A stretch of 64,000 nt of DNA from Terriglobia bacterium (GCA_965198225.1 CBDAOY010000008.1:704001-768000); one strand, 5' to 3'; positions 52,214-63,622 are shown, counted from the stretch's first letter. Program-made: numbers and translations. Notes: generated by a model from the letters alone, not told the origin.

Positions 52214-52813
52214 TCAGGTCAGGGATCGAGTGAACAGGTCGCCGAAATCTTCGGCGATCTGTTCGGCCGTCATCTTCCCCCGGGGCGAGTACCACTGGAC
52301 GATCCAGTTCAACGCGCCCAGAATCGCCCACACAGTCGTCTTGACGTCGGAGGCCCTGAAGACTCCCTCCTTCATACCTGCCTCCACCACCTGGCGGTAG
52401 GCTTTCTCGTACCGATCCCGCTTCCGGACGATTTCCTTGAGTTGATCCTTTGGAAGCGACCGAAAGTCCGTGTGGGCTGTCGAGCCCGGCAGCTCCTCGA
52501 GCACCGTCCGGACGTGAAGCGCGATCAACCCTTTCAGTTTGGCGTCGGCCGTCTGATCCGATTCCACGACTTCGTCCGCCTGCTCGGTGAGACGTTCCAG
52601 GGAGTATTCCTGGCAGAAATAGAGGAGGTCCTGCTTGGAAGAGAAGTAGTAGTAGAGGTTGCCCTTGGCCATCTGCGCTTTTTCGGCAATCTCTGCCATC
52701 GTAGCTCCGGTGAATCCGTTGCGAGTGAAAGCGGCCGACGCAGAGCGGAGGATCTCCAGCCTGCGTTCGGTGAAGCGCCGATTACGCTTGACGGGTTTTT
52801 GTTTGTCGGCCAA
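52214..52813 (-). CDS. TetR family regulator (PaaR/KstR2-like)
   Basis: GF..ATM.EIA.....KGNLYYYFSSKQDL; C-terminal GALNWIVQWYSP.G. Confidence 0.9.
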   Translation of the reverse strand: MADKQKPVKRNRRFTERRLEILRSASAAFTRNGFTGATMAEIAEKAQMAKGNLYYYFSSKQDLLYFCQEYSLERLTEQADEVVESDQTADAKLKGLIALHVRTVLEELPGSTAHTDFRSLPKDQLKEIVRKRDRYEKAYRQVVEAGMKEGVFRASDVKTTVWAILGALNWIVQWYSPRGKMTAEQIAEDFGDLFTRSLT

Positions 52814-53708
52814 TCGGGCCTCCTCGGTGGATCTTTCGTCGCTTGCCCTTCGGCTCAGGGTCTTCCGGACGTGCCGCGCGGACCGATGCCGTGATCAATC
52901 CGACGGCGTCCCGGATCGGGGTCGAGCTCGTGTCGATCGTCTGTGTGGCCTCCGAGTAGAGAGGCGACCGAATCGACAAGATCGAGCGCAGTTCGGTCAT
53001 CGCGGATCGTCGGTTGGCCATCGGACGGGTGTCACCCTGGCCAAGCACGCGTTCCCAGTGGTCCTCCGGTGAGGCCTTCAGCCACACGGTATGCGTGCGG
53101 CGCTTCAACAGGGACCAGGTTTCCGGGTCGGTCACGATCGATCCACCGGTTGCGATCACCATCTGTTCGTTACGGGACAGAAGGCGCAGCATCAGGTCGT
53201 GGGCAAGGCGCTTATAGTAACTCTCGCCATGGAGAGAGAACAGCTCCGACAGTGAGAGGTTGGATTCCTCCTCGATCATGGCGTCCAATTCCACGAAAGA
53301 GATTTTCAGACGTCCTGCAAGGTTGGGTCCGATCGTCGATTTGCCCGCTCCGCGCAGACCCACCAGCGAGATCGACGGCCGTCTGTCTTCCTGAAGGCGT
53401 GTTCCGAGCCAGGCTGACAGCTCCTCCAGATCCTCGTCGGAGCATCGATCAACGAGAGCGATGACCCGCTCGAGCGAACTCCCGCTGCCCGTGTCCGGCG
53501 GCAGCAGCTTGACGAGCGGAACGCCCAGGGCCCGGGCAACGTCGGCCAGGCGGGCGACGGAGATGTTGCCCCTGCCGGCCTCCAGATCCGAAAGAAAGCG
53601 AGACGAGACGCCGGATCTCTCGGCAACTTCCTTGATTGTCCAGCCGGTTGTGTTCCGCAAAGTCCGGACGCGTTGTCCGACCTCAAGCAAAAGAGTGTCC
53701 TGATCCAT
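52782..53708 (-). CDS. boxR: BzdR/BoxR-type regulator (XRE HTH + shikimate-kinase-like acyl-CoA sensor)
   Basis: VAERSGVSSRFLSDLEAGRGNISV; ISLVGLRGAGKST, ATGGSIV, WLKA.PE.H..RV..QGD.RPMA. Confidence 0.9.
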   Translation of the reverse strand: MDQDTLLLEVGQRVRTLRNTTGWTIKEVAERSGVSSRFLSDLEAGRGNISVARLADVARALGVPLVKLLPPDTGSGSSLERVIALVDRCSDEDLEELSAWLGTRLQEDRRPSISLVGLRGAGKSTIGPNLAGRLKISFVELDAMIEEESNLSLSELFSLHGESYYKRLAHDLMLRLLSRNEQMVIATGGSIVTDPETWSLLKRRTHTVWLKASPEDHWERVLGQGDTRPMANRRSAMTELRSILSIRSPLYSEATQTIDTSSTPIRDAVGLITASVRAARPEDPEPKGKRRKIHRGGPIGRQTKTRQA

Positions 53709-53728
53709 GTCAGCCTATATACGCAATA

Positions 53729-53776
53729 TGCAGTATAGTGCGTATTGACTTCAAGCATAATGTGCAATATAGTACA
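53729..53776 (+). promoter_or_regulatory. catabolic operon promoter with two BzdR/BoxR-type operator boxes
   Basis: TTGACT(53745)-N17-TATAGT; TGCA-N6-TGCG at 53729 and TGCA-N6-TACA at 53763. Confidence 0.75.
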
Positions 53777-53849
53777 AACTTCGCTCTCAGCACTTTTCTG
53801 TATCTATACCCTCACACAAGATCAAGTTTGGGGCTTTAGGGAGGACCGA

Positions 53850-55286
53850 ATGGCCAAGATGTTTATCGGTGGGGAGTCGGTGGATGCCGCTTCCGGAGAC
53901 ACGTACGACGTCATTAACCCTGCAACCGGCGAGGTCGTCGACACGGTCGCCAAAGGCAACGAGGAAGACACGAGGCGTGCAATCGACAGCGCCACGGAGG
54001 CGTTTGCAGAATGGGCAGACACCGCCGCCGAATCCCGTGCCCATCTGATACAGAAGGGGATCGAACTCGTCAAGGCCGAGATCGACGACCTGTCAGTCAC
54101 TCTGACCAAAGAGCAGGGTAAACCCGTCAGCGAGTCGAAGCGCGAGATCGAGCACTTCCTCCACGGGATGTCGTTTTACGCGGGTCTCGCTTCGAAGGTA
54201 CGCGGCTCCTACGTCCCTCTCCCCAACAACAGCATGTACGGCATGGTTTTGAAGCAACCCGTGGGCGTATGCGGGGCAATCGTTCCCTGGAACTTCCCGA
54301 CGACGTTGATGGGAACCAAGATCGGCCCGGCCATGGCGGCCGGATGCACCTCGATCGTCAAGCCCGCATCGACGACCCCGCTGACGACGGTTCGGATCGT
54401 CGAGCTGTTCAACCAGGCCGGGCTCTCGAAAGGGGTGCTGAACGTGGTGACGGGTCCAGGCAGCGTGGTCGGCGAAGAACTGCTTCAGAATTCGAAAGTC
54501 AGGCGGATCGCATTCACCGGAGAGAGCGGAACCGGCAAGCACATCATGGAGGTTGCCGGCGGCAACATGAAGCGCGTGACGCTGGAGTTGGGCGGCAGCG
54601 ATCCCATGATCGTCTGCGAGGACGCGTTCATGAAAGGTGCGCTGACCGGCGCTGCTGTTGGCCGTTTCTACAACTGTGGTCAGGCCTGCCTGGCAGTCAA
54701 GCGGCTGTTCGTATTCGAGAATGTTTATGACGAGTTCGTCGAAGGGCTGGTCGGCAAGGCCGGGCGACTGGTGCCCGGCAACGGAATGAACGAAAAGGTC
54801 CGGATGGGACCGATGCACACGGCGGCCCAGAGAGAGGAAGTCGAGTCCCAGATCAAGGATGCCGTCGATCGCGGCGGGAAGGTCCTGGTCGGCGGCACCC
54901 GGCCCGAAGGCGAGGAATACGACAAGGGCAACTACCTGACTCCGGCCATCATCGTTGACGCGCCGCTGGATTCCCGTATCGCGACCGAAGAAGTGTTCGG
55001 GCCCGCCCTGCCGGTCTTCAAGGTCGGCGACCTGGATGAGGCGATCGAGAAAGCCAACAGCTCGGTGTTCGGCCTGGGTGCTTCGATCTGGACGAGCGAC
55101 CTGACCCGGGCGCGAAGGGCGGCGGAGCGGTTGGAGGCAGGAAACGTCTGGGTCAATTCGCTACATATCGGCTACGACGAAATGCCGTTCGGCGGGGTGA
55201 AGGACAGCGGAATAGGCCGCGAACACGGTCCCGAAGCCCTGGAGCATTACCTGGAACCCAAAGGGGTGGTGGTCGCGACCTTGTAG
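53850..55286 (+). CDS. aldehyde dehydrogenase (paralogue 1)
   Basis: PWNFP, FTGE, LELGGSDP, NCGQAC, EEVFGP, PFGGVK.SG.GRE. Confidence 0.93.
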   Translation: MAKMFIGGESVDAASGDTYDVINPATGEVVDTVAKGNEEDTRRAIDSATEAFAEWADTAAESRAHLIQKGIELVKAEIDDLSVTLTKEQGKPVSESKREIEHFLHGMSFYAGLASKVRGSYVPLPNNSMYGMVLKQPVGVCGAIVPWNFPTTLMGTKIGPAMAAGCTSIVKPASTTPLTTVRIVELFNQAGLSKGVLNVVTGPGSVVGEELLQNSKVRRIAFTGESGTGKHIMEVAGGNMKRVTLELGGSDPMIVCEDAFMKGALTGAAVGRFYNCGQACLAVKRLFVFENVYDEFVEGLVGKAGRLVPGNGMNEKVRMGPMHTAAQREEVESQIKDAVDRGGKVLVGGTRPEGEEYDKGNYLTPAIIVDAPLDSRIATEEVFGPALPVFKVGDLDEAIEKANSSVFGLGASIWTSDLTRARRAAERLEAGNVWVNSLHIGYDEMPFGGVKDSGIGREHGPEALEHYLEPKGVVVATL

Positions 55287-55294
55287 CGGGTCGG

Positions 55295-55546
55295 GTGTAG
55301 GTGCGCTCTATGAGCGCACATCGTCTCGGTTTGAAGAGTGTGCGGTCACAGACCGCACCTACACCGGGCCATAGGTCGTTCCTGCTTGGATACCTTTTGG
55401 GAAAACGGTCCGTGAGGGAGCCACTGTGAGGGGGACAGGGGTATAGCCCTGTCCCCGGGTTTTGAGGCAAGCAGACAACGTTCCCGAACGACGGAGCGCG
55501 CATGGTCTCGGTTCGAAGAGTGTGCGGTCATAGACCGCACCTACAC
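55295..55546. repeat. compound REP cluster between the two ALDH genes
   Basis: GTAG-type REPIN 55295-55364, GGGGACAGGG repeat 55418-55459, second REPIN half 55494-55546. Confidence 0.85.
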
Positions 55547-55616
55547 CGGCGCAAGGTTGCTCCTGCATAGATGCGAAAGACGGGAACACGTAGAGTCGAA
55601 AAAGAAGGCAGGCTCA

Positions 55617-57065
55617 ATGCCGACAAAGATGATGGTCGCGGGCGAGTGGCGGAACTCGGCGGGCGGCAAAGAAAAAGAGATCCGGAACCCGGCCACAGGA
55701 GAGGTCGTCGACACGGTCGTCGAGGCGACGGAGTCGGATATCGCGGCGGCAATCGACTCCGCGGAGTCCGCTTTCCGGGATTGGGCCGCCACCCCCCCGC
55801 CGCGACGAGCCGAGATCGTGGACAGGGGAGCCCGCCTTGTCAAGGAGCGCGAGAAGGACTTAGCTCGCCTGCTGACTCAGGAGCAGGGCAAGCCGCTCCG
55901 GGAGGCGATGCTGGAGATTCGCCGCTTCGTTCACACGCTCAATCACTACACCGGTATGGCCAAAAGCATCCGGGGCGGCTACGTTCCCCTGCTCAACGAG
56001 CGCAGCTACGGGATGATCATCAAGAAACCGATCGGTATCGTGGGCTCGATCGTTCCATGGAATTTTCCGGTTGCGCTGATGGGGAACAAGATCGGGCCCG
56101 CCCTGATCGCGGGTGACACGATTGTCGTCAAGCCGGCCGGCACGACGCCCCTGACGGCGACGGCCTGCGTCGGTGTGCTCAACGAGGCTGGACTTCCACC
56201 GGGAGTCCTGAACATCGTGCCTGGACCCGGTGGGGTAGTCGGGGAAGCGCTGCTGAAGGACCCTAGAGTGCGCAAGATTGGATTTACGGGTGCGACGGAA
56301 ACAGGGCGACATGTCATGGAAGTGGCCGCCGAAACCGTGAAGCGAGTGACGCTTGAGCTGGGGGGGAGCGACCCGATGATCGTCTGCGACGACGCGAATA
56401 TCGATGCCGCGGTCAGCGCGGCTTCGGTCGGGCGCTTCTTCAATTGCGGTCAGGCGTGTCTTGCCATCAAGCGGCTGTACCTGTTCGACGAGATCTATGA
56501 CGAGTTCGTCGAGAAACTCGTCGCCAAAGTTGGGAAATTGCGTATCGGCAATGGACTCGAACAGGGTGTTCTGGTCGGACCGCTGCACAGCGCCGCTCAG
56601 CGTGAAGAGGTCGAAGAGCAGGTGCGGGATGCCGTGGAGGGTGGAGCCACCGTACTCGCCGGCGGGAAACGCCCTGAGGGAGACGGCCTGGACAAGGGAC
56701 ACTTCTACATGCCGACCCTTCTGGCGGACGTCGATGAGCAGTCGAAGGTCGTCCAGGAAGAGGTATTCGGCCCCGCCCTTCCGATCATGCGGGTCTCGGA
56801 GATGGACGAAGCGATCGAGCGTGCCAATTCATCGATATTCGGCCTGGGCTCTTCGGTGTGGACGCGCAACATCGACCGTGCCAACGAAGGGGCCGAACGG
56901 CTGGAGTCGGGTTACACGTGGGTGAATTCCCCGCAGATCATATTCGATGAGCTGCCCTTCGGGGGCGCCAAACAAAGTGGCCTCGGTAAGGAGCACGGGT
57001 CGGAGGCGTTCGACTACTACATGGAAACCAAGTCGGTTGTGATCGCGAAGAACACGACAGGCTGA
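55617..57065 (+). CDS. aldehyde dehydrogenase (paralogue 2)
   Basis: PWNFP, FTGA, LELGGSDP, NCGQAC, EEVFGP. Confidence 0.93.
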   Translation: MPTKMMVAGEWRNSAGGKEKEIRNPATGEVVDTVVEATESDIAAAIDSAESAFRDWAATPPPRRAEIVDRGARLVKEREKDLARLLTQEQGKPLREAMLEIRRFVHTLNHYTGMAKSIRGGYVPLLNERSYGMIIKKPIGIVGSIVPWNFPVALMGNKIGPALIAGDTIVVKPAGTTPLTATACVGVLNEAGLPPGVLNIVPGPGGVVGEALLKDPRVRKIGFTGATETGRHVMEVAAETVKRVTLELGGSDPMIVCDDANIDAAVSAASVGRFFNCGQACLAIKRLYLFDEIYDEFVEKLVAKVGKLRIGNGLEQGVLVGPLHSAAQREEVEEQVRDAVEGGATVLAGGKRPEGDGLDKGHFYMPTLLADVDEQSKVVQEEVFGPALPIMRVSEMDEAIERANSSIFGLGSSVWTRNIDRANEGAERLESGYTWVNSPQIIFDELPFGGAKQSGLGKEHGSEAFDYYMETKSVVIAKNTTG

Positions 57066-57127
57066 ATACTTCATTCGGACCAAAGCTATGGGATTCAGCG
57101 TCGCTGAAACCCGGGAGTGAAACGATT

Positions 57128-57910
57128 ATGGCCCTGGTAGATTATCGGGTTGAAGGCGGCCTCGGGATCATCGAGATCAACAATCCGCCGGCAAACGTCT
57201 ACACCCTGGACAGTCTGAAACTACTGGACGAGGCGATCGTGAAGACGCGGTTCGATTCCTCGGTCCACGTGATCGTGATAATGGGTGCCGGCGACAAGTT
57301 CTTCTCTGCGGGTGCCGACATCCGGATGCTCTCCTCGGAGACCACGGACTTCAAGAACAACTTTGCGCTGTTCGGTCACGAGACCCTGTTGCGTCTGGAG
57401 AATACGCCAAAGCTGGTGATCGCCGGCATCAACGGTCACTGTGTGGGCGGGGGCCTGGAGATCGCGATGGCGTGTGACATCCGGATCGCAAAAAAGGACG
57501 CGGGGCGGGTGGGGCTTGCCGAGGTCAATCTCGGTGTGATTCCCGGAATGGGCGGTACCCAGCGGTTGCCACGCCTCGTCGGTCGGGCACGCGCCCTGGA
57601 ACTCGGGGCGACCGGGCGCATGATCGCCTTCGAGGAGGCCGAAGCCTGGAACCTGATTCACGACATCTTTGATCCCGAAGACTTCAAGCAACAGGTGATG
57701 GACTACGCCGGCCAGTTCGTCGCTCCAAACAAGCCGAGCAAGGCGGTGGGTTTGATCAAGCGCGCGATTCAATCCGGTATCAACGGAAGTCTCGCCGACG
57801 GCCTGGCCCTGGAAAGGGAAGCCCTGGCCCAGGCCTTTGACAGTGCGGATGCTGCCGAGGGATTGAGCGCTTATCAGGAGAAGCGGGTGGCCAAGTTCGT
57901 TGGCAAGTAA
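57128..57910 (+). CDS. enoyl-CoA hydratase/crotonase family
   Basis: FSAGADI, GGGLEIAMACD, LAEVNLGVIPG.GGTQRL (both catalytic Glu present). Confidence 0.92.
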   Translation: MALVDYRVEGGLGIIEINNPPANVYTLDSLKLLDEAIVKTRFDSSVHVIVIMGAGDKFFSAGADIRMLSSETTDFKNNFALFGHETLLRLENTPKLVIAGINGHCVGGGLEIAMACDIRIAKKDAGRVGLAEVNLGVIPGMGGTQRLPRLVGRARALELGATGRMIAFEEAEAWNLIHDIFDPEDFKQQVMDYAGQFVAPNKPSKAVGLIKRAIQSGINGSLADGLALEREALAQAFDSADAAEGLSAYQEKRVAKFVGK

Positions 57911-57972
57911 GCTGGGCAGGGTTCAACGGTGACAGGTCCTCGACCTGACCCGTTATGAGGAGGTAAGTTTAC

Positions 57973-59076
57973 GTGGCCAGAATTTCGACATTTGATGACT
58001 GGACCGACTATTTCCGCGAGTGGCAGAAGGACATCGGTCTGGATGCTTCGCGATTCGACGACTACGAATTTGAAGTGAAGTTCGGCCCGGTTGCATCGGA
58101 AGAGATCGAATTCGGCGATTTCGCCGGGCGCCCCAAGTGGGAGAGGGTGATCCAGATACCGGACCAGCGGATCCGGGACTCCCTGCTGCACTTGATTACG
58201 TTCCAGGGAGACACCGAGTTCGCGTCCGTCGAGCAGCAGAAGCACCTGCTCGACACCGCTCCGAGTGATTACGATCTGCAGTCGGCGCTCAAGATCATGA
58301 GGGAAGAGATGCGTCACGGGACGCAGATGTGCTACCTCCTCGTGAAGTACTTCGGCGACACCGGAAAACTCGAAGCTCAGAAACTCCTGGAGAGGCGTGC
58401 GTACGAGAACAGTCGCCTCCTGGGAGCTTTCAACCAGGACATCAGCGATTGGCTCGATTTCTACTGTTTCACGGAACTGGTCGACCGCGACGGCAAGTAT
58501 CAGCTGACCATGCTGAGCCACTCTGGGTTCAAACCTCTCGCGGCGAGTATGCAGCCGATGTTGGGAGAGGAGTTCTTCCACCTCCTGACCGGGCACACGG
58601 GTTTGAGCAGGATCATTAAAGCCGGAAAGGTTCCTCATGACATCCTGCAGAAACACGTCAACAAGTGGTATTCCGTCGCCCTGGATCTGTTTGGTGTGGA
58701 CCAGTCTTCCTCGGCGGCCTGGTTCTACGCCTGGGGACTCAAGGGACGTTACGACGAAGGGAGTGTCGAAGGCGAACCTGATCGGGACAAGCTGAACGAG
58801 GCGGCCCGCGGTCATTACATGGCGGAAGTTGCCGAGTTGTTCGCCGCACTGAACAAGTTGATACCGGAAGACCAGCCCAAGCTGAGCCTGCCGGATCCGA
58901 AATTTCACCGCGGTATCGGTGAGTTCGCGGACAAGAGATACGGCGCAACGGGAGAGCTGCTGTCACCGGATGCATACGCGACTCATCTCGAGAAAACTCT
59001 TCCTACCGCGGCGGACAAGGCGAAGCTGTCTGAGGTCTTCAAGGACCAGGACTGGATTCTCAAGGTAGAACAATAG
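57973..59076 (+). CDS. BoxB-like di-iron aromatic-CoA epoxidase subunit (short form)
   Basis: QGDTEFASVEQQ, TAPS.YD, EEMRH, DRDGKYQL, EEFFH, LDLFG: the BoxB motif series. Confidence 0.85.
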   Translation: MARISTFDDWTDYFREWQKDIGLDASRFDDYEFEVKFGPVASEEIEFGDFAGRPKWERVIQIPDQRIRDSLLHLITFQGDTEFASVEQQKHLLDTAPSDYDLQSALKIMREEMRHGTQMCYLLVKYFGDTGKLEAQKLLERRAYENSRLLGAFNQDISDWLDFYCFTELVDRDGKYQLTMLSHSGFKPLAASMQPMLGEEFFHLLTGHTGLSRIIKAGKVPHDILQKHVNKWYSVALDLFGVDQSSSAAWFYAWGLKGRYDEGSVEGEPDRDKLNEAARGHYMAEVAELFAALNKLIPEDQPKLSLPDPKFHRGIGEFADKRYGATGELLSPDAYATHLEKTLPTAADKAKLSEVFKDQDWILKVEQ

Positions 59077-59080
59077 ACTG

Positions 59081-59404
59081 ATGTCCGACAAGTACGTCCT
59101 CGTTTGTCAGAACGCCGATTGCAAAGCCCGGCAGGCGGGCGAGTTGTTGGAGGCGCTGGACAAACGGCTGAAGGATTCCGCCGACATTACGGTTAAACCG
59201 TACATGTGCTTCGGGGCCTGTCAGTCGGGCCCGAACATCGTGATGTATCCCCAGAAAGTCTGGTACGCGAAGGTGAGCCCGGACGACGTTGAGGACATTG
59301 CGGGCTATGCCGAGGGCGGGCCGGAAGTCGGGCGGTTGACCGAGGGCGTCGACCGGGGACTTCAGGAACTGATCTACCAGCTGTTGGACGCGGGACTGTT
59401 CTAG
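59081..59404 (+). CDS. thioredoxin-like [2Fe-2S] ferredoxin (NuoE-like)
   Basis: VCQNADC ... CFGACQSGP..MYP...WY..V. Confidence 0.9.
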   Translation: MSDKYVLVCQNADCKARQAGELLEALDKRLKDSADITVKPYMCFGACQSGPNIVMYPQKVWYAKVSPDDVEDIAGYAEGGPEVGRLTEGVDRGLQELIYQLLDAGLF

Positions 59405-59553
59405 TGGCCTGTAGCAGGTCACTATACGCCTGATCCTCGGGATCAAGCGTGCGGTCAGCGGTCAGCTTTCAGCTTCCTGCCAGGAAACGGGACGCTCAGG
59501 GCCTTCATCCAGAAGCCTGAACGCTGAAAGCCGATGGCTGATTGCATCTGCCC

Positions 59554-60843
59554 ATGATTGTTTTCCCAAACGGCGTCAAGTCGGCTCCAGGCAGCCCCGG
59601 CCGGGCGGGCCGTCCCGCGGAGCCCGAAAGCTTTGAGGCCTATCTGTCTTCCGGCGGGTATCAGGCGCTTGAAGCCGCCCTCGGCCGGTCGCGGTCCGCC
59701 GTCATCGACGAGATTGCCGCTGCGGGACTGAGAGGGAAGGGCGGCGCGGGCTTTCCGGCCGCGAAGAAGTGGCAGATTGCCGCCGAGACAGACGCCCGTC
59801 CGCGCTACGTCGTCTGTAACGCCGGCGAAGATGAGCCGGGAAGTTTCAAGGACCGAGCCGCGATCGAGCACCGGCCGCACCTGGTCTTGGAAGGAATGAT
59901 CCTGGCGGCTTACGCGGTCGGTGCGGAGCAAGCCTACCTCTACCTCAACGAGACCTACGACACCTGTCACGATCGCATCAGCGGGGCGATAGCGGAGGCT
60001 CGCGGGGCGTCCTACCTGGGCGAGCGGATCTGCGGCACGACGTTTTCGATGGAAGTGTCAATCTGCAGAGCGCCGACGACGTATGTAGCCGGAGAGGACT
60101 CGGCATCCCTGGAATTCCTGGAGGGGCGCGAGGCGAAGCCGCGGGAAAAGCCACCTTACCCTGCAGTGGCCGGCCTGTACGGTAAGCCGACGATCGTCAA
60201 CAACGTGGAGACCCTGGCGCACGTTCCCGCGATCCTTCGGCACGGCGCCGCCTGGTATCGTGGTTTTGGAGTGGAACACAGTCCAGGCACGATGATCTTC
60301 TGCCTGGGCGAGGAGGTGAACGCGCCGGGCGCCTACGAGCTCCCTGTCGGGACGACCGCACGGTACTTGCTCGAAGAATGCGGGGGAGGGCTGCGGGACG
60401 CTCGATCGGTTCGGGCGTTCCTTCCCGGCGGGCCGTCGTGCGCTTTCCTGAAGGGCGACGACCTGGATGTTGCGCTCGAGCCGGAGGCGCTCAAGGCGGC
60501 GGGATCGAGTCTCGGTTGCGGTGTGATGCGGTATTATCCGGAAGGAACGTGCATGCTCGAACCCGCCCTAGATCTGGCGGGGTTTTTTGCGAAGGAATGC
60601 TGTGAGCAGTGTCCTGCGTGTCGAATGGAGACGTCGATGCTGGCAGCCTTGTTGGAGAGGATCCGGCAGGGGCAGGGCGATCGGCACCTGTACGAGCAGT
60701 TTCCGAAGATCATCGAATTCAATCGCGGAAAAGGTTACTGCGCTCTCATCAACATGCCGGGCCCCCCGCTTCTGAGCGCAATCCGGCTGTTCCGGGAGGA
60801 CTTCGATCATCACCTGGAGCATGGCACCTGCCTGCAGGCCTGA
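59554..60843 (+). CDS. NuoF/HoxF-like FMN/[4Fe-4S] NAD(P)H-binding subunit
   Basis: GLRGKGGAGFP, CNAGEDEPGSFKDR, YVAGEDSA, PTIVNNVETL, GGPS, CEQCPAC...C. Confidence 0.9.
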   Translation: MIVFPNGVKSAPGSPGRAGRPAEPESFEAYLSSGGYQALEAALGRSRSAVIDEIAAAGLRGKGGAGFPAAKKWQIAAETDARPRYVVCNAGEDEPGSFKDRAAIEHRPHLVLEGMILAAYAVGAEQAYLYLNETYDTCHDRISGAIAEARGASYLGERICGTTFSMEVSICRAPTTYVAGEDSASLEFLEGREAKPREKPPYPAVAGLYGKPTIVNNVETLAHVPAILRHGAAWYRGFGVEHSPGTMIFCLGEEVNAPGAYELPVGTTARYLLEECGGGLRDARSVRAFLPGGPSCAFLKGDDLDVALEPEALKAAGSSLGCGVMRYYPEGTCMLEPALDLAGFFAKECCEQCPACRMETSMLAALLERIRQGQGDRHLYEQFPKIIEFNRGKGYCALINMPGPPLLSAIRLFREDFDHHLEHGTCLQA

Positions 60844-60845
60844 AC

Positions 60846-61571
60846 ATGTTTGACGACAAGATTGAAGCCGCTGACTTCAACAAGATGCCGGAGGAATACC
60901 GGGATCTGCTGGTTCGCGTGTTGCGGATTCAGGCCGACTGCGAAATAGGCGGACCGCATCTCTACGTACGCGAATGGTTGCTGGGGGCACCGAGCGCCGA
61001 AGAACAGTGGAAGGTTGCCAAGACAGCGGCGGAGGAGATCGACCATTTTCACAAGATCAATGTCCTGTTGAACGAGCTCGGCTTTGACGCCTCGGATCGC
61101 CTGTTCATACAGAAGCCGGAGCGTTACGTGGACGCGTTCCGGAAGGACATGCCGACGTGGGCGGACTGGGCCGTTTTCGGGATGCTGATCGACCGGGTGG
61201 GACAATATCAGCTCGACGAGTTCGTCGATTGCAGCTACCTGCCGTTGGCACGCCTTTTGCCGCCCTACGACAACCAGATCCTCGAGGAGGAGCAGGGACA
61301 CGTCCACTTCGGCCTTTTGAAGATGGTCGAGCTCATGAAGACCGAGGAAGGCAAGCGACAGGTCCAGAACGCTGTCGACCGGTGGTACATCACCGCCCTG
61401 GACATGTTCGGTCAGACGGAATCCCGGCGCAGCCATCGCTACATCGACTGGGGCATCAAGCGGCGCACGAACATGGAAGCGCGGCGGGCTTACATTGCCG
61501 AGGTGAACCCGATCCTGGAAAAACTGGGGCTGAACATTCCGGATGCCGAAGAGGGAAGGAAGTTCATGTAG
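60846..61571 (+). CDS. PaaA/PaaC-family ferritin-like di-iron subunit (241 aa)
   Basis: MPEEYR, QADCE, APS, EEIDH, IDRVG, CSY.PL, EEQGH, Q.AVDRWY..ALDMFG, WGIKRRTN. Confidence 0.85.
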   Translation: MFDDKIEAADFNKMPEEYRDLLVRVLRIQADCEIGGPHLYVREWLLGAPSAEEQWKVAKTAAEEIDHFHKINVLLNELGFDASDRLFIQKPERYVDAFRKDMPTWADWAVFGMLIDRVGQYQLDEFVDCSYLPLARLLPPYDNQILEEEQGHVHFGLLKMVELMKTEEGKRQVQNAVDRWYITALDMFGQTESRRSHRYIDWGIKRRTNMEARRAYIAEVNPILEKLGLNIPDAEEGRKFM

Positions 61572-61658
61572 CAGGGAAGTGACAAGTTGTTGAAGAAGTG
61601 GTCAGCCAGCCGGAAACCCCTGCGGCCATCTCTCAACTGACTACTGACTACTTCTTCT

Positions 61659-62444
61659 TCACTTCCCCTTGAACTTCGGCTCCCTTTTCTCCAGGAACGC
61701 CTCGACGCCTTCCTTGAAGTCATCGGTGCGGGTGGTTTCGGCGATCAGGGCACTCTCCTGCGCGAGGTGGACGTCGAGCAGGTTCTTGTGGCTGCTGTTG
61801 ATCAAAAGCTTGATCCTGCCCAAGGCCTCGGTGGGCCCCCGGGCCATTTGCTTCGCCCAGACGGAAGTCTCTTCCTCCAATCGATCATCCGGAACGACGC
61901 GATTGATGATTCCCCATTTGTATGCGTCGGTCGCCGAAATGGAATCCCCCGTGAAGAACAACTCAGTCGCCTTCCCGACTCCCACGAGGCGCGGGAGGAA
62001 ATAGGTTCCTTCGGAGGTCAGGCCGAGCTGGACCCACGATTGGTTGAAACTGGCCGACTCGGCGGCGATCCGAAGGTCGCATGCCAGCGCGAGGTTGAAC
62101 CCCTGACCGCTCGCGACGCCGTGGATGGCGGCGATCACGGGCTTCGGGATCGTCCGCAGTTGCATCTCGAGCAAGTGCACCCGGTTGATCCAGTTCTTCA
62201 TGAACGCCTCGGTGTCGCCATCCATCATGTTTTCCATGACATGGATGTCGCCGCCGGAACTGAAGGCTCTGCCGTTCCCCTTTAGGATGATGGCGCGAAC
62301 ATCGCTGTTCTGAGTGGCATCGAAGATTGCCCGGAGCATCTCGTCCAGCATGTCGAGATCGATGGCGTTCAGGTTTTCGGGCCGGTCCATAGTGAGCGTA
62401 CCGACCTGATCGACCACTGAAAACTGGATGTTCTTGTAGTCCAT
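61659..62444 (-). CDS. crotonase family, PaaG-like isomerase
   Basis: RPENLNA, AFSSGGD, GQGFNLALACD (first Glu absent), LGLTSEG, DFKEGV.AFLEKREP.F.G. Confidence 0.85.
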   Translation of the reverse strand: MDYKNIQFSVVDQVGTLTMDRPENLNAIDLDMLDEMLRAIFDATQNSDVRAIILKGNGRAFSSGGDIHVMENMMDGDTEAFMKNWINRVHLLEMQLRTIPKPVIAAIHGVASGQGFNLALACDLRIAAESASFNQSWVQLGLTSEGTYFLPRLVGVGKATELFFTGDSISATDAYKWGIINRVVPDDRLEEETSVWAKQMARGPTEALGRIKLLINSSHKNLLDVHLAQESALIAETTRTDDFKEGVEAFLEKREPKFKGK

Positions 62445-62518
62445 AGGGCGGCGATTATACCAGATCGATTTCGGGGCCCTCGGCCTCGACTGAAGCGGTC
62501 GGCGGCCCAAGGGTTGTC

Positions 62519-63622
62519 TTAGGCGAGAAGGGCGCGCTGGACGAACCAGTAGAACCCCAATGACATGATCGCTACCGAAGCGACGGTCATGACACGTTCC
62601 TTCCAGCGAGTTCGGCCGAGGTAGATCAACAGGGGAAACAGCGCGCTGACAAACACCAGTTGGCCGATCTCCACTCCGATATTGAAGGAGAACAGCGACA
62701 CCGCAAGCGTTCGGCGGCTCAGCTCCATTTCCTGCAGGACGTTCGAGAACCCGAACCCATGGACGAGTCCGAAGAGGAAGGTGATCTTCCAGCGATGGAC
62801 CAGGGTGTGACCCGTGAAGTTTTCGATGGCGATGTAGGCGATGCTCAGCGCAATCAGGCTCTCGATGAGTCGCGCCGGCAGGGCGACCAGGCCGAAGGTT
62901 GCCAACGCGAGAGTGACGCTGTGCGCGAGGGTGAAGGAAGTAACGACTTTGGCAAGCGCCAGGAGAGTGGTCGTCGCCATCAGGAGGCCCACGAGAAAGG
63001 CCAGATGGTCGTAGCCCGTGAATATGTGTTCGATCCCGAGCTCGCTGAAATCCAGCATCGTCACCCAGAGGGGAACGCCGGCAGCATAATCGATGTCGAT
63101 TTCCGGTTCGTCGGCGCTGAGCACACCGTGGCGTGCTTCGTCACCTTCGCCGATCTGCAGGAGGTGGCGATGGTTGGGTTGTGTGATCTCGTCGAGCCTC
63201 GACACAACCCGGAGGTCGGTCACCTCGTGTTCGAATCGGTAGACGATGTTCAGCCGGGCGACGTTGTCGGCGACGAAATCATAGTTGTCGAGAAAGGACT
63301 CCGCCGGAACATCGGGTGCCCGGACCAGAAAGTGCTCTCGGATCGCCTCGAAAAACTCGACGATGACTTCATCGAGCTCGTCGGAGGTGGCGAGGCCGTC
63401 GGCGTCGGCGTCGACCTGCGGCCCGGCGTGCAGGTCCAGGAGGTTCAGCGTCAGCGCGACCCGAACGACCGGGCCTTCCGCGGAGAAACGGGAATAGCTG
63501 GTCGAGAAGTCGTGGGCCGTGGCTCTCGTGGCAAAAGCCAGAGCCAGGAGGAGAAAAAGACCTACTGTAAAAGCCCTACGTCGTTTCAACATGCCCTCCA
63601 GATCGTATACTGATTCCGGCAC
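62519..63622 (-). CDS. HupE/UreJ family protein
   Basis: ATAH after signal peptide; GIEHIFTGYDHLAF, FTLAHSVTL, FGLVHGFGF, FNIGVEIGQ; start uncertain (63592 possible). Confidence 0.9.
   Translation of the reverse strand: MPESVYDLEGMLKRRRAFTVGLFLLLALAFATRATAHDFSTSYSRFSAEGPVVRVALTLNLLDLHAGPQVDADADGLATSDELDEVIVEFFEAIREHFLVRAPDVPAESFLDNYDFVADNVARLNIVYRFEHEVTDLRVVSRLDEITQPNHRHLLQIGEGDEARHGVLSADEPEIDIDYAAGVPLWVTMLDFSELGIEHIFTGYDHLAFLVGLLMATTTLLALAKVVTSFTLAHSVTLALATFGLVALPARLIESLIALSIAYIAIENFTGHTLVHRWKITFLFGLVHGFGFSNVLQEMELSRRTLAVSLFSFNIGVEIGQLVFVSALFPLLIYLGRTRWKERVMTVASVAIMSLGFYWFVQRALLA

Follow-up and report, generated by a model that had tools for sequence, protein, structure and literature searches.

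Benzoyl-coenzyme A (CoA) is a hub of aromatic carbon turnover, and to our knowledge the characterised aerobic CoA-dependent ring epoxidases use only BoxA or PaaE as reductase. BoxB is described as a monomeric protein that depends on BoxC and is served by BoxA, an NADPH/flavin adenine dinucleotide (FAD) protein with two [4Fe-4S] clusters; PaaA is described as needing PaaB and PaaC together with PaaE, a class IA FAD/[2Fe-2S] reductase (PMC4498308). Here we report on a gene cluster within a 64,000-nucleotide (nt) stretch of a Terriglobia bacterium genome (CBDAOY010000008.1:704001-768000, hereafter the window), in which a short BoxB-type di-iron oxygenase gene is followed directly by genes for a ferredoxin and a NuoF-like flavoprotein. 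The bacterium is a soil acidobacterium, and the same pairing recurs in many soil bacteria that have not been cultured. The source genome comprises 6.4 Mb on 9 contigs and is 97% complete, and the loci closest to the window carry the label Solibacteraceae, Acidobacteriota. On computational grounds the cluster probably encodes an NADH-linked, BoxA-independent benzoyl-CoA-type epoxidase pathway, and we rate the chance as somewhat better than even that it is an operon under BoxR-type control through which benzoyl-CoA, or an aryl-CoA closely similar to it, is degraded aerobically. A first-pass annotation of this DNA had read the cluster as a third architecture of CoA-dependent ring epoxidase; the core of that reading, in which a BoxB-type epoxidase works without BoxA and is served by a reductase of the complex-I/hydrogenase type, holds up in our analysis, while its assumptions about a second di-iron gene, the role of the first crotonase and the absence of a CoA ligase do not.

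The BoxAB system of Azoarcus/Aromatoleum evansii (3PER, 3PF7, 3PM5, 3Q1G), with its BoxC and BoxD, has an oxygenase clearly homologous to the one encoded here, with identical iron ligands at all six positions and a benzoyl pocket that is almost unchanged; a BoxR/BzdR-type regulator and crotonase-family and aldehyde dehydrogenase genes are further features in common. It differs in the size of the oxygenase (~473 residues, against 367 here), and the protein in the window falls under the cut-off of the BoxB model TIGR03225 and into a clade of its own. A NuoF-type flavin mononucleotide (FMN)/[4Fe-4S] protein and a [2Fe-2S] ferredoxin stand in the place of BoxA, a two-domain BoxC was not found here, and the aldehyde dehydrogenases are not close to the solved box-pathway enzyme. 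The PaaABC(D)E system of E. coli and Pseudomonas, with PaaG and PaaZ, has in common with the window a PaaA-family di-iron protein and a PaaG-like crotonase; however, the PaaA-like protein here has 241 residues and scores 108.2 bits on the PaaA model TIGR02156 (cut-off 280), and PaaE was not found in the genome. NuoE/NuoF of complex I and the HydB, HoxF and NfnB flavoproteins, which belong to bifurcating hydrogenases and NAD-linked dehydrogenases, have the same FMN/NADH/[4Fe-4S] core as the flavoprotein, and the C-terminal part of NuoE and the N-terminal [2Fe-2S] domain of HydB resemble the ferredoxin. In contrast to HydB (~600 residues), the NuoF-like protein has 433 residues and is without ferredoxin domains at its C-terminus; its gene is flanked by two di-iron oxygenase genes, and none for NuoG or for a hydrogenase or formate-dehydrogenase partner adjoins it. 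By curated scores and by partner proteins the locus belongs neither to BoxABCD nor to PaaABCE.

The oxygenase gene (57973-59076, plus strand) encodes a protein of 367 residues whose best solved relative is Azoarcus BoxB (3PER, E 6.7e-56). For A. evansii BoxB the iron ligands are given as Glu120, Glu150, His153, Asp211, Glu240 and His243, and the substrate shell as Gln116, Thr119, Ser123, Phe193, Phe203/206 and Thr210 (PMC5489048). Alignment to 3PER finds all six ligands in the short protein (E82, E112, H115, D171, E200 and H203), together with six of the seven residues of the benzoyl-contact shell (Q78, T81, S85, F153, F163 and F166), Thr210 being replaced by Val170. The ligand and pocket positions, including the valine, are invariant in 15 members of the short-BoxB family. 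In its active site the protein agrees with benzoyl-CoA epoxidase, in support of the first-pass annotation, and we propose from the alignment that the short BoxB is a benzoyl-CoA-type (aryl-CoA) epoxidase.

The short protein is set apart from canonical BoxB by its scores. The TIGR03225 profile spans 471 positions, and membership is defined by an equivalog cut-off of 499.1 bits over the full length; the protein reaches 247.4 bits in two stretches, the best of which covers profile positions 64-324, and 43 bits on the PaaA model. A profile search found no BoxB over the TIGR03225 cut-off anywhere in the source genome. The gene called "BoxB-like" is a member of a separate short family of ~365 residues, for which a search of a 90%-clustered protein collection returned 5099 proteins at E<=0.001; the best 120 of these are nearly all 365-368 residues long and carry automatic names only. 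At 50% identity there were 1013 representatives (122 of them at E<=1e-30), and short BoxB occurs in at least 580 species-level genomes from Acidobacteriota, Binatia, Methylomirabilota and other soil lineages. In a quick tree search, two representatives of canonical BoxB, with TIGR03225 scores of 672 and 908 bits, fell apart from the short proteins at a branch with an SH-like approximate likelihood-ratio test (SH-aLRT) support of 94.

A second short-BoxB gene lies elsewhere in the source genome (contig C9:872583-873578, corresponding to L106:7584-8579), among genes for universal-stress, cytochrome c peroxidase and aconitase proteins. Its product is 68% identical to the first over the first 124 residues, lacks residues ~125-222 and with them three of the six iron ligands, and has a short stretch duplicated internally. 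The gene is probably a paralogue in decay. A tblastn search of the source genome with both di-iron proteins of the window returned no further PaaA/BoxB-family gene besides this truncated one.

The two genes downstream of the oxygenase encode redox proteins. The ferredoxin gene (fd, 59081-59404, plus strand; Pfam 2Fe-2S_thioredx) specifies a thioredoxin-like [2Fe-2S] protein of 107 residues, best matched among solved structures by the 1F37-type (Aquifex-type) ferredoxin and the N-terminal domain of HydB, and 16 sequences all share its four cysteines C9, C14, C43 and C47. The flavoprotein gene (59542-60843, plus strand, with a start at TTG 59542 or ATG 59554) encodes Complex1_51K, SLBB and NADH_4Fe-4S domains, and HydB, NfnB, HoxF and Nqo1 are the best solved relatives of its product. 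The FMN/NADH-binding motifs, one glycine-rich and one acidic (EDEPG), and the four cysteines of the [4Fe-4S] cluster (C354, C357, C360 and C400, a CxxCxxC...C pattern) are invariant in 14 sequences. The protein scores 402.9 bits on the NuoF model TIGR01959 (cut-off 558.65), is not encoded in a nuo operon, and has two NuoF paralogues elsewhere in the source genome. Taken together, ferredoxin and flavoprotein resemble a HydB that has been split in two and is missing the ferredoxin domains of its C-terminus.

We then compared the neighbourhoods of short BoxB in the best 80 genome loci, searching these with the window's proteins, clustering the neighbouring genes and annotating one representative per cluster. 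Genes in these loci were called by codon-position GC, which missed the BoxB of one locus (L062); this locus was left out of the cluster counts and of the tree. Three main contexts emerged, in step with the quick tree, and six loci fit none of them. In context A, which takes in 25 loci with one or both genes, those for the ferredoxin and the NuoF-like protein come immediately after BoxB. Context B (~30 loci, mostly from Acidoferrales-type Acidobacteriota) lacks the reductase pair, and context C (18 loci forming one clade) has no catabolic neighbours, UPF0158, MutY, DUF5777 and FabH-like genes taking their place. Within context A, a subclade of 23 rows (SH-aLRT 99) has variable flanks that include genes for a phosphoenolpyruvate-utilising enzyme, a radical SAM protein, TctA, a Leu/Phe-tRNA transferase and a polysaccharide deacetylase. 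Because the flanks are unrelated and vary, we concluded that BoxB, ferredoxin and NuoF are the conserved unit of context A. The same picture was obtained closer to the window: the ten best BoxB loci of relatives all have the order ech1-BoxB-fd-NuoF, with 55-71% identity in NuoF. The first-pass annotation had predicted a conserved set of BoxB, ferredoxin, NuoF and a second di-iron gene, of which the trio stands and the last member does not.

A metagenome scan with the NuoF-like protein gave eight loci, seven of them at >=56% identity. The ferredoxin gene lies immediately upstream of the flavoprotein gene in all seven; BoxB precedes the ferredoxin in four, the contig ends at the ferredoxin in two, and the seventh (L103:1-6095) is arranged differently. 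This locus encodes an enoyl-CoA hydratase, a CoA-transferase, the ferredoxin, the NuoF-like protein, a PaaA-like protein (59% identity), an unknown ORF (open reading frame) and a GMC oxidoreductase, so that the reductase pair goes here with the short PaaA-like oxygenase and without BoxB. In one of the window's relatives (L114, G425:C43:67735-71253) the PaaA-like coding sequence is broken over two frames, and an in-frame TAG interrupts the match to NuoF; these breaks reflect either decay or assembly error.

Several observations count against a reductase dedicated to short BoxB. A close NuoF-like gene (E<=1e-120) is present in 18 of 60 relatives; 12 of the 28 BoxB-positive relatives have none, and a NuoF-like protein above 42% identity is absent from all five context B/C genomes searched. 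As two other short-BoxB clades do without a dedicated ferredoxin/NuoF pair, the pair is clade-specific within the short-BoxB family. In three loci of one acidobacterial family (L136, L137 and L138) the pair stands alone (43-47% identity in the ferredoxin and 54-56% in the NuoF-like protein), with a phosphofructokinase gene on one side and a gene for DNA polymerase I or a peptidase on the other, and in one of these three genomes short BoxB is missing at E<=1e-40. Since the pair can stand alone among housekeeping genes, it could be a general NADH:ferredoxin diaphorase, with short BoxB being reduced by some other, unlinked system, which the clades without the pair must in any case possess. We regard this as unlikely in view of the retention of the trio in all ten loci of relatives, its constant order amid changing flanks, and its co-occurrence: of the 18 relatives that have a NuoF-like gene this close, 16 carry BoxB as well, and one of the two remaining carriers is a 73%-complete assembly with the gene at a contig start. 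Moreover, the pair adjoins the other di-iron gene in L103, and the source genome has neither BoxA nor PaaE over cut-off.

Prediction of a complex between BoxB and the ferredoxin adds weak support to their partnership. The ipSAE was 0.44 (runs of 0.44, 0.46 and 0.43), and the best of three controls reached 0.00; the runs agreed in at least 75% of contacts with a partner pLDDT (predicted local distance difference test) of at least 85, on alignments of our own. In the calibration of this score, 58 of 80 solved complexes passed the mark, as did 2 of 110 mismatched pairs. Passing scores of 0.60 or less, the range of the present value, were obtained for only 7 of the 80 solved complexes and for both passing mismatches. 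The pass is a weak one, which also counts against the reading.

Consistent with a replacement of the known reductases, the search of the source genome found no BoxA (TIGR03224, best score 20.8 bits against a cut-off of 459.2), no PaaE (TIGR02160, 32.7 against 420.8) and no BoxC (TIGR03222) over cut-off. The best BoxC match was the crotonase ech1 of the window, with 86.2 bits against 712.3 and covering profile positions 43-244 only. The cluster itself contains none of BoxA, BoxC and PaaE, in line with the first-pass annotation, and none of PaaB, PaaC, PaaD and PaaZ, the search for these four being confined to the cluster. BoxA over cut-off was likewise missing from all ten other short-BoxB genomes searched. 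The BoxA and BoxC models came without a positive control, as nothing scored over cut-off in any genome searched, and this limits what their silence can contribute to the case for BoxA independence. We also asked whether a BoxA might be hidden in other genomes that carry short BoxB or in those with a longer BoxB-like protein; none was found with this same model. A CoA ligase had also been noted as missing, which is true of the cluster; the genome does encode a benzoate-CoA ligase ~500 kb away, beside unrelated genes, which with 594.8 bits clears its cut-off of 375.25. The source genome also has, on another contig, a 4-hydroxybenzoyl-CoA-reductase-like operon whose scores are below the cut-offs.

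A pointer to the substrate of the pathway comes from context B, whose clusters share with the window the short BoxB (56-61% identity), ech1 orthologues (56-59%), a PaaG-like crotonase and an aldehyde dehydrogenase. They differ in lacking the ferredoxin/NuoF pair, in having a TetR-type instead of a BoxR-type regulator, and in their additional Mug-like, rhodanese and ArsC/Spx-like genes. The typical order is TetR, the ech1 orthologue, often an aldehyde dehydrogenase, the Mug-like gene, the PaaG-like crotonase and BoxB, followed by the rhodanese, the ArsC/Spx-like gene and a 3-hydroxyacyl-CoA dehydrogenase. Thirteen of the 80 loci additionally contain a three-subunit molybdoenzyme. In the example analysed (L041) its best match is 4-hydroxybenzoyl-CoA reductase, with scores of 977.9 (cut-off 994.55), 331 (404.55) and 167 bits (257.8) for the alpha, beta and gamma subunits. 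These 4-hydroxybenzoyl-CoA-reductase-like neighbours point to benzoyl-CoA as the substrate, as judged from gene annotation.

Short BoxB could also be a genuine oxygenase that acts on a different CoA ester or catalyses a different reaction, for example a hydroxylation, in an operon for some other acid. Its ~100 missing residues and its score under the BoxB cut-off mean that substrate or product may differ, and the position of Thr210, next to the ligand Asp, is a valine across the whole family. The genome search gave no ring-cleaving enzyme of the BoxC type, ech1 and the aldehyde dehydrogenases look generic, and the many loci of context C are without catabolic neighbours. Against this stand the six conserved residues of the seven that contact the benzoyl group, the BoxR-type regulator, the 4-hydroxybenzoyl-CoA-reductase-like genes next to BoxB in context B and the benzoate-CoA ligase in the genome, which together make another substrate or reaction rather improbable in our judgement. 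We retain benzoyl-CoA or a close analogue as the favoured substrate.

The gene directly after nuoF (60846-61571, plus strand) encodes the PaaA-like di-iron protein of 241 residues (PaaA_PaaC, 93.4 bits), for which 4MUD (74 bits) and PaaA 3PVR (68 bits) are the closest solved structures. In an alignment with short BoxB the six ligand positions coincide throughout, whereas residues of the pocket are exchanged (T for C, S for G and F for W, short BoxB first). The protein belongs to its own family of ~240 residues, with 955 matches. Its distribution is narrow: we found it in 10 of 60 relatives, directly after nuoF in the seven loci compared, and in a single one of 401 sampled genomes of the phylum, the window's own. 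The PaaA-like protein is, from its conserved ligands and its distribution, a putative second di-iron oxygenase and a lineage-specific addition in a few genera, and it forms no part of the conserved set in which the first-pass annotation had placed it. We also considered that it might be an iron-free structural partner of the PaaC type; this was ruled out by the six retained ligand positions and by the occurrence of the ferredoxin/NuoF pair with this protein and without BoxB in L103.

The two crotonases of the cluster are of different kinds. The product of ech1 (57128-57910, plus strand; ECH_1, 164.9 bits) is a single-domain protein whose best solved relatives are ordinary enoyl-CoA hydratases, BoxC 2W3P reaching only 90 bits. 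Orthologues of ech1 are present in 26 of 28 BoxB-positive and in 1 of 32 BoxB-negative relatives, are found unlinked at 65-66% identity in all five Binatia-type genomes, and in another acidobacterial family accompany genes for a 588-residue two-domain BoxC-like protein and a 492-residue BoxB-like protein. Because the protein is hydratase-like and its orthologue coexists with a full-length BoxC-like gene, ech1 is probably a lower-pathway enoyl-CoA hydratase and not the ring-opening enzyme. On the same grounds its proposed role as a substitute for BoxC is unlikely, and we dropped it as the leading idea.

By contrast with ech1, the convergent gene ech2 (61659-62510, minus strand) encodes a PaaG-like crotonase. 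Its best solved matches are the Thermus-type structures 6SL9 and 3HRX, followed by E. coli PaaG (4FZW_C); 3HRX is listed under PaaG in PMC4498308. The protein scores 214.3 bits on the PaaG model TIGR02280 (cut-off 345.15) and 212 bits on an alternative oxepin-CoA hydrolase model (cut-off 300). The gene lies beside the PaaA-like gene in six of seven loci, and a similar PaaG-like crotonase is encoded just upstream of BoxB in context B. Judged by its relatives, ech2 is a better candidate than ech1 for ring opening and double-bond shift.

The aldehyde dehydrogenases encoded by aldh1 (53851-55286, plus strand; Pfam Aldedh, 529.6 bits) and aldh2 (55557-57065, plus strand, exact start uncertain; 543.2 bits) are paralogues with 56% identity. 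The best solved relatives of aldh1 are generic semialdehyde and betaine-aldehyde dehydrogenases, and those of aldh2 are likewise generic; aldh2 is kept upstream of ech1 in nine of ten loci of relatives. An orthology of either protein to BoxD is unsupported, as the matches at E<=1e-95 do not include the solved box-pathway aldehyde dehydrogenase, and the suggestion that the two enzymes are dedicated stand-ins fits poorly with relatives of this kind.

From the gene content and order, the conserved cofactor and active-site residues, the co-occurrence of the genes and the absence of BoxA, BoxC and PaaE over cut-off, we infer a direction of electron flow, a substrate, a product and a series of downstream steps as follows. 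NADH would reduce the FMN of the NuoF/HydB-type flavoprotein, whose [4Fe-4S] cluster would pass electrons to the 107-residue [2Fe-2S] ferredoxin; the ferredoxin would in turn reduce the di-iron centre of short BoxB. The oxygenase would then activate O2 and epoxidise the ring of the CoA ester. Flavoprotein and ferredoxin would in this way replace both BoxA (NADPH, FAD and two [4Fe-4S] clusters) and PaaE. A crotonase, for which ech2 is the better candidate, would open the epoxide or oxepin, one of the two aldehyde dehydrogenases would oxidise the resulting semialdehyde, ech2 would isomerise the product and ech1 would hydrate it towards beta-oxidation. The 241-residue PaaA-like protein may share the reductase with short BoxB while acting on a separate substrate.

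We see about an even chance that this arrangement is of a more general kind, namely that a split HydB/NuoF-type NADH dehydrogenase with its ferredoxin is a modular reductase for compact di-iron oxygenases (here short BoxB and short PaaA), and that together with the BoxA-less short-BoxB family it provides a widespread route for aromatic acids in uncultured soil phyla. If so, boxA, boxB and boxC markers applied at their cut-offs would overlook a large part of the potential for this chemistry in soil, and di-iron oxygenases could be driven by a complex-I/hydrogenase-type reductase. The window places the trio inside a regulated catabolic operon and so supplies a substrate hypothesis for it, the trio being otherwise alone in Binatia. 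In the open full-text literature, outside which most subscription journals lie, we found no BoxB-type or other di-iron oxygenase linked to a NuoF-type reductase and no description of box genes in these lineages.

The regulator gene (52782-53708, minus strand) is divergent from the operon and encodes an HTH_3 domain and a shikimate-kinase-like (SKI) domain; the protein scores 305.3 bits on the BoxR/BzdR-type model NF006015, over the cut-off of 204. The divergent arrangement is kept in four other loci (L007, L008, L099 and L102). Between boxR and the revised start of aldh1 lie 142 nt, which motif and repeat analysis and the alignment of loci mark as a promoter and operator candidate (53719-53773, plus strand). 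A sigma-70-like promoter (TTGACT at 53745-53750, a spacer of 17 nt and TATAGT at 53768-53773) matches the consensus at 10 of 12 positions. A 15-nt direct repeat (53725-53739 and 53759-53773) covers the -10 hexamer with its second copy, and an inverted repeat spans 53719-53745. The block TGAC-N14-GCAATATAGTAC is invariant in all five aligned loci, in which the proteins are only 55-78% identical. Operators of BzdR/BoxR contain TGCA repeats, and TGCA is present in both copies of the 15-nt repeat. By these motifs the control region is an operator-like candidate of the BoxR/BzdR-type regulator.

Genes in the window were called from an ORF list together with a Pfam scan and an NCBIfam scan with curated cut-offs. 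These scans bore out the whole gene set that had been listed earlier, with its places and strands; in the gene map the order and strands stand, while the starts of the PaaA-like gene and aldh1 and the identity of the oxygenase as a full-size BoxB had to be changed. The longest PaaA-like ORF (60609-61571) overlaps nuoF by 235 nt, and the true start is ATG 60846, two bases past the nuoF stop codon. For aldh1, formerly begun at 53745, the most likely start is ATG 53851, which is preceded by GGGAGG; this ATG and its ribosome-binding site are kept in all five aligned loci.

Two intergenic spacers distinguish the operon from those of its relatives. The 270-nt aldh1-aldh2 spacer (55287-55556) is built from repeats: two copies of a ~75-nt multi-copy hairpin unit surround a central GC-rich hairpin. 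The hairpin arms have 1149-1238 short matches in the source genome, which contains no second full-length copy of the spacer, and in L099 the two genes are only ~18 nt apart. That the spacer is a copy of a 275-bp MITE of this genome was considered and not confirmed, since its arms alone are multi-copy. The 137-nt fd-nuoF spacer (59405-59541) is structured, with a predicted fold of -63.5 kcal/mol, and a 28-36-nt part of it recurs at three other genome sites; in close relatives fd and nuoF are nearly contiguous. Both spacers, being absent in relatives, and the truncated BoxB paralogue elsewhere in the genome would fit a cluster that is decaying or silent, its operon disturbed by repeat insertions. 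We consider this very improbable, as nine ORFs are intact with normal codon-position GC, the catalytic residues are conserved and so is the promoter/operator block.

The outermost gene on the regulator side (52214-52813, minus strand) encodes a TetR-family regulator (Pfam TetR_N and TetR_C_24), and as called its ORF overlaps that of boxR by 32 nt. In neither of the two close loci that reach that far (L007 and L008) is there a tetR counterpart beside the operon, which makes its membership in the system doubtful; it may be no part of it.

In context A, the labels of the loci span several phyla on very short branches, two of them (L031 and L032) lying 0.03 and 0.038 from their common node. The metagenome-assembled genomes of L010-L032 are labelled Binatia, Myxococcota, Thermodesulfobacteriota, Verrucomicrobiota, Chloroflexota and Eisenbacteria. 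This mixture suggests mis-binned contigs or recent transfer, and as some labels may have arisen in this way we did not count phyla.

The operon of context B contains in 21 loci (for example L035:8522-9073) a gene for a protein of ~170-180 residues from the Mug/uracil-DNA-glycosylase superfamily, whose DNA-repair fold is an odd fit for an operon that runs from TetR and ech1 to BoxB.

The acidobacterial family with the long BoxB-like protein is exemplified by L128:4544-14305. Here a BoxR-type regulator gene is divergent from the gene for the 588-residue two-domain BoxC-like crotonase, and the locus further encodes the 492-residue BoxB-like protein and xanthine-dehydrogenase-family subunits (Fer2_2, MoCo and FAD_binding_5). 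BoxA over cut-off was absent from all four genomes of this type searched, with the model that had no positive control, and L128 looks like another BoxA-less box arrangement.

On the other side of the window's cluster, a gene for a HupE/UreJ-family membrane protein (62519-63622) adjoins ech2 and keeps this place in five of seven loci of relatives; a link to the metal supply of the oxygenases is speculation.

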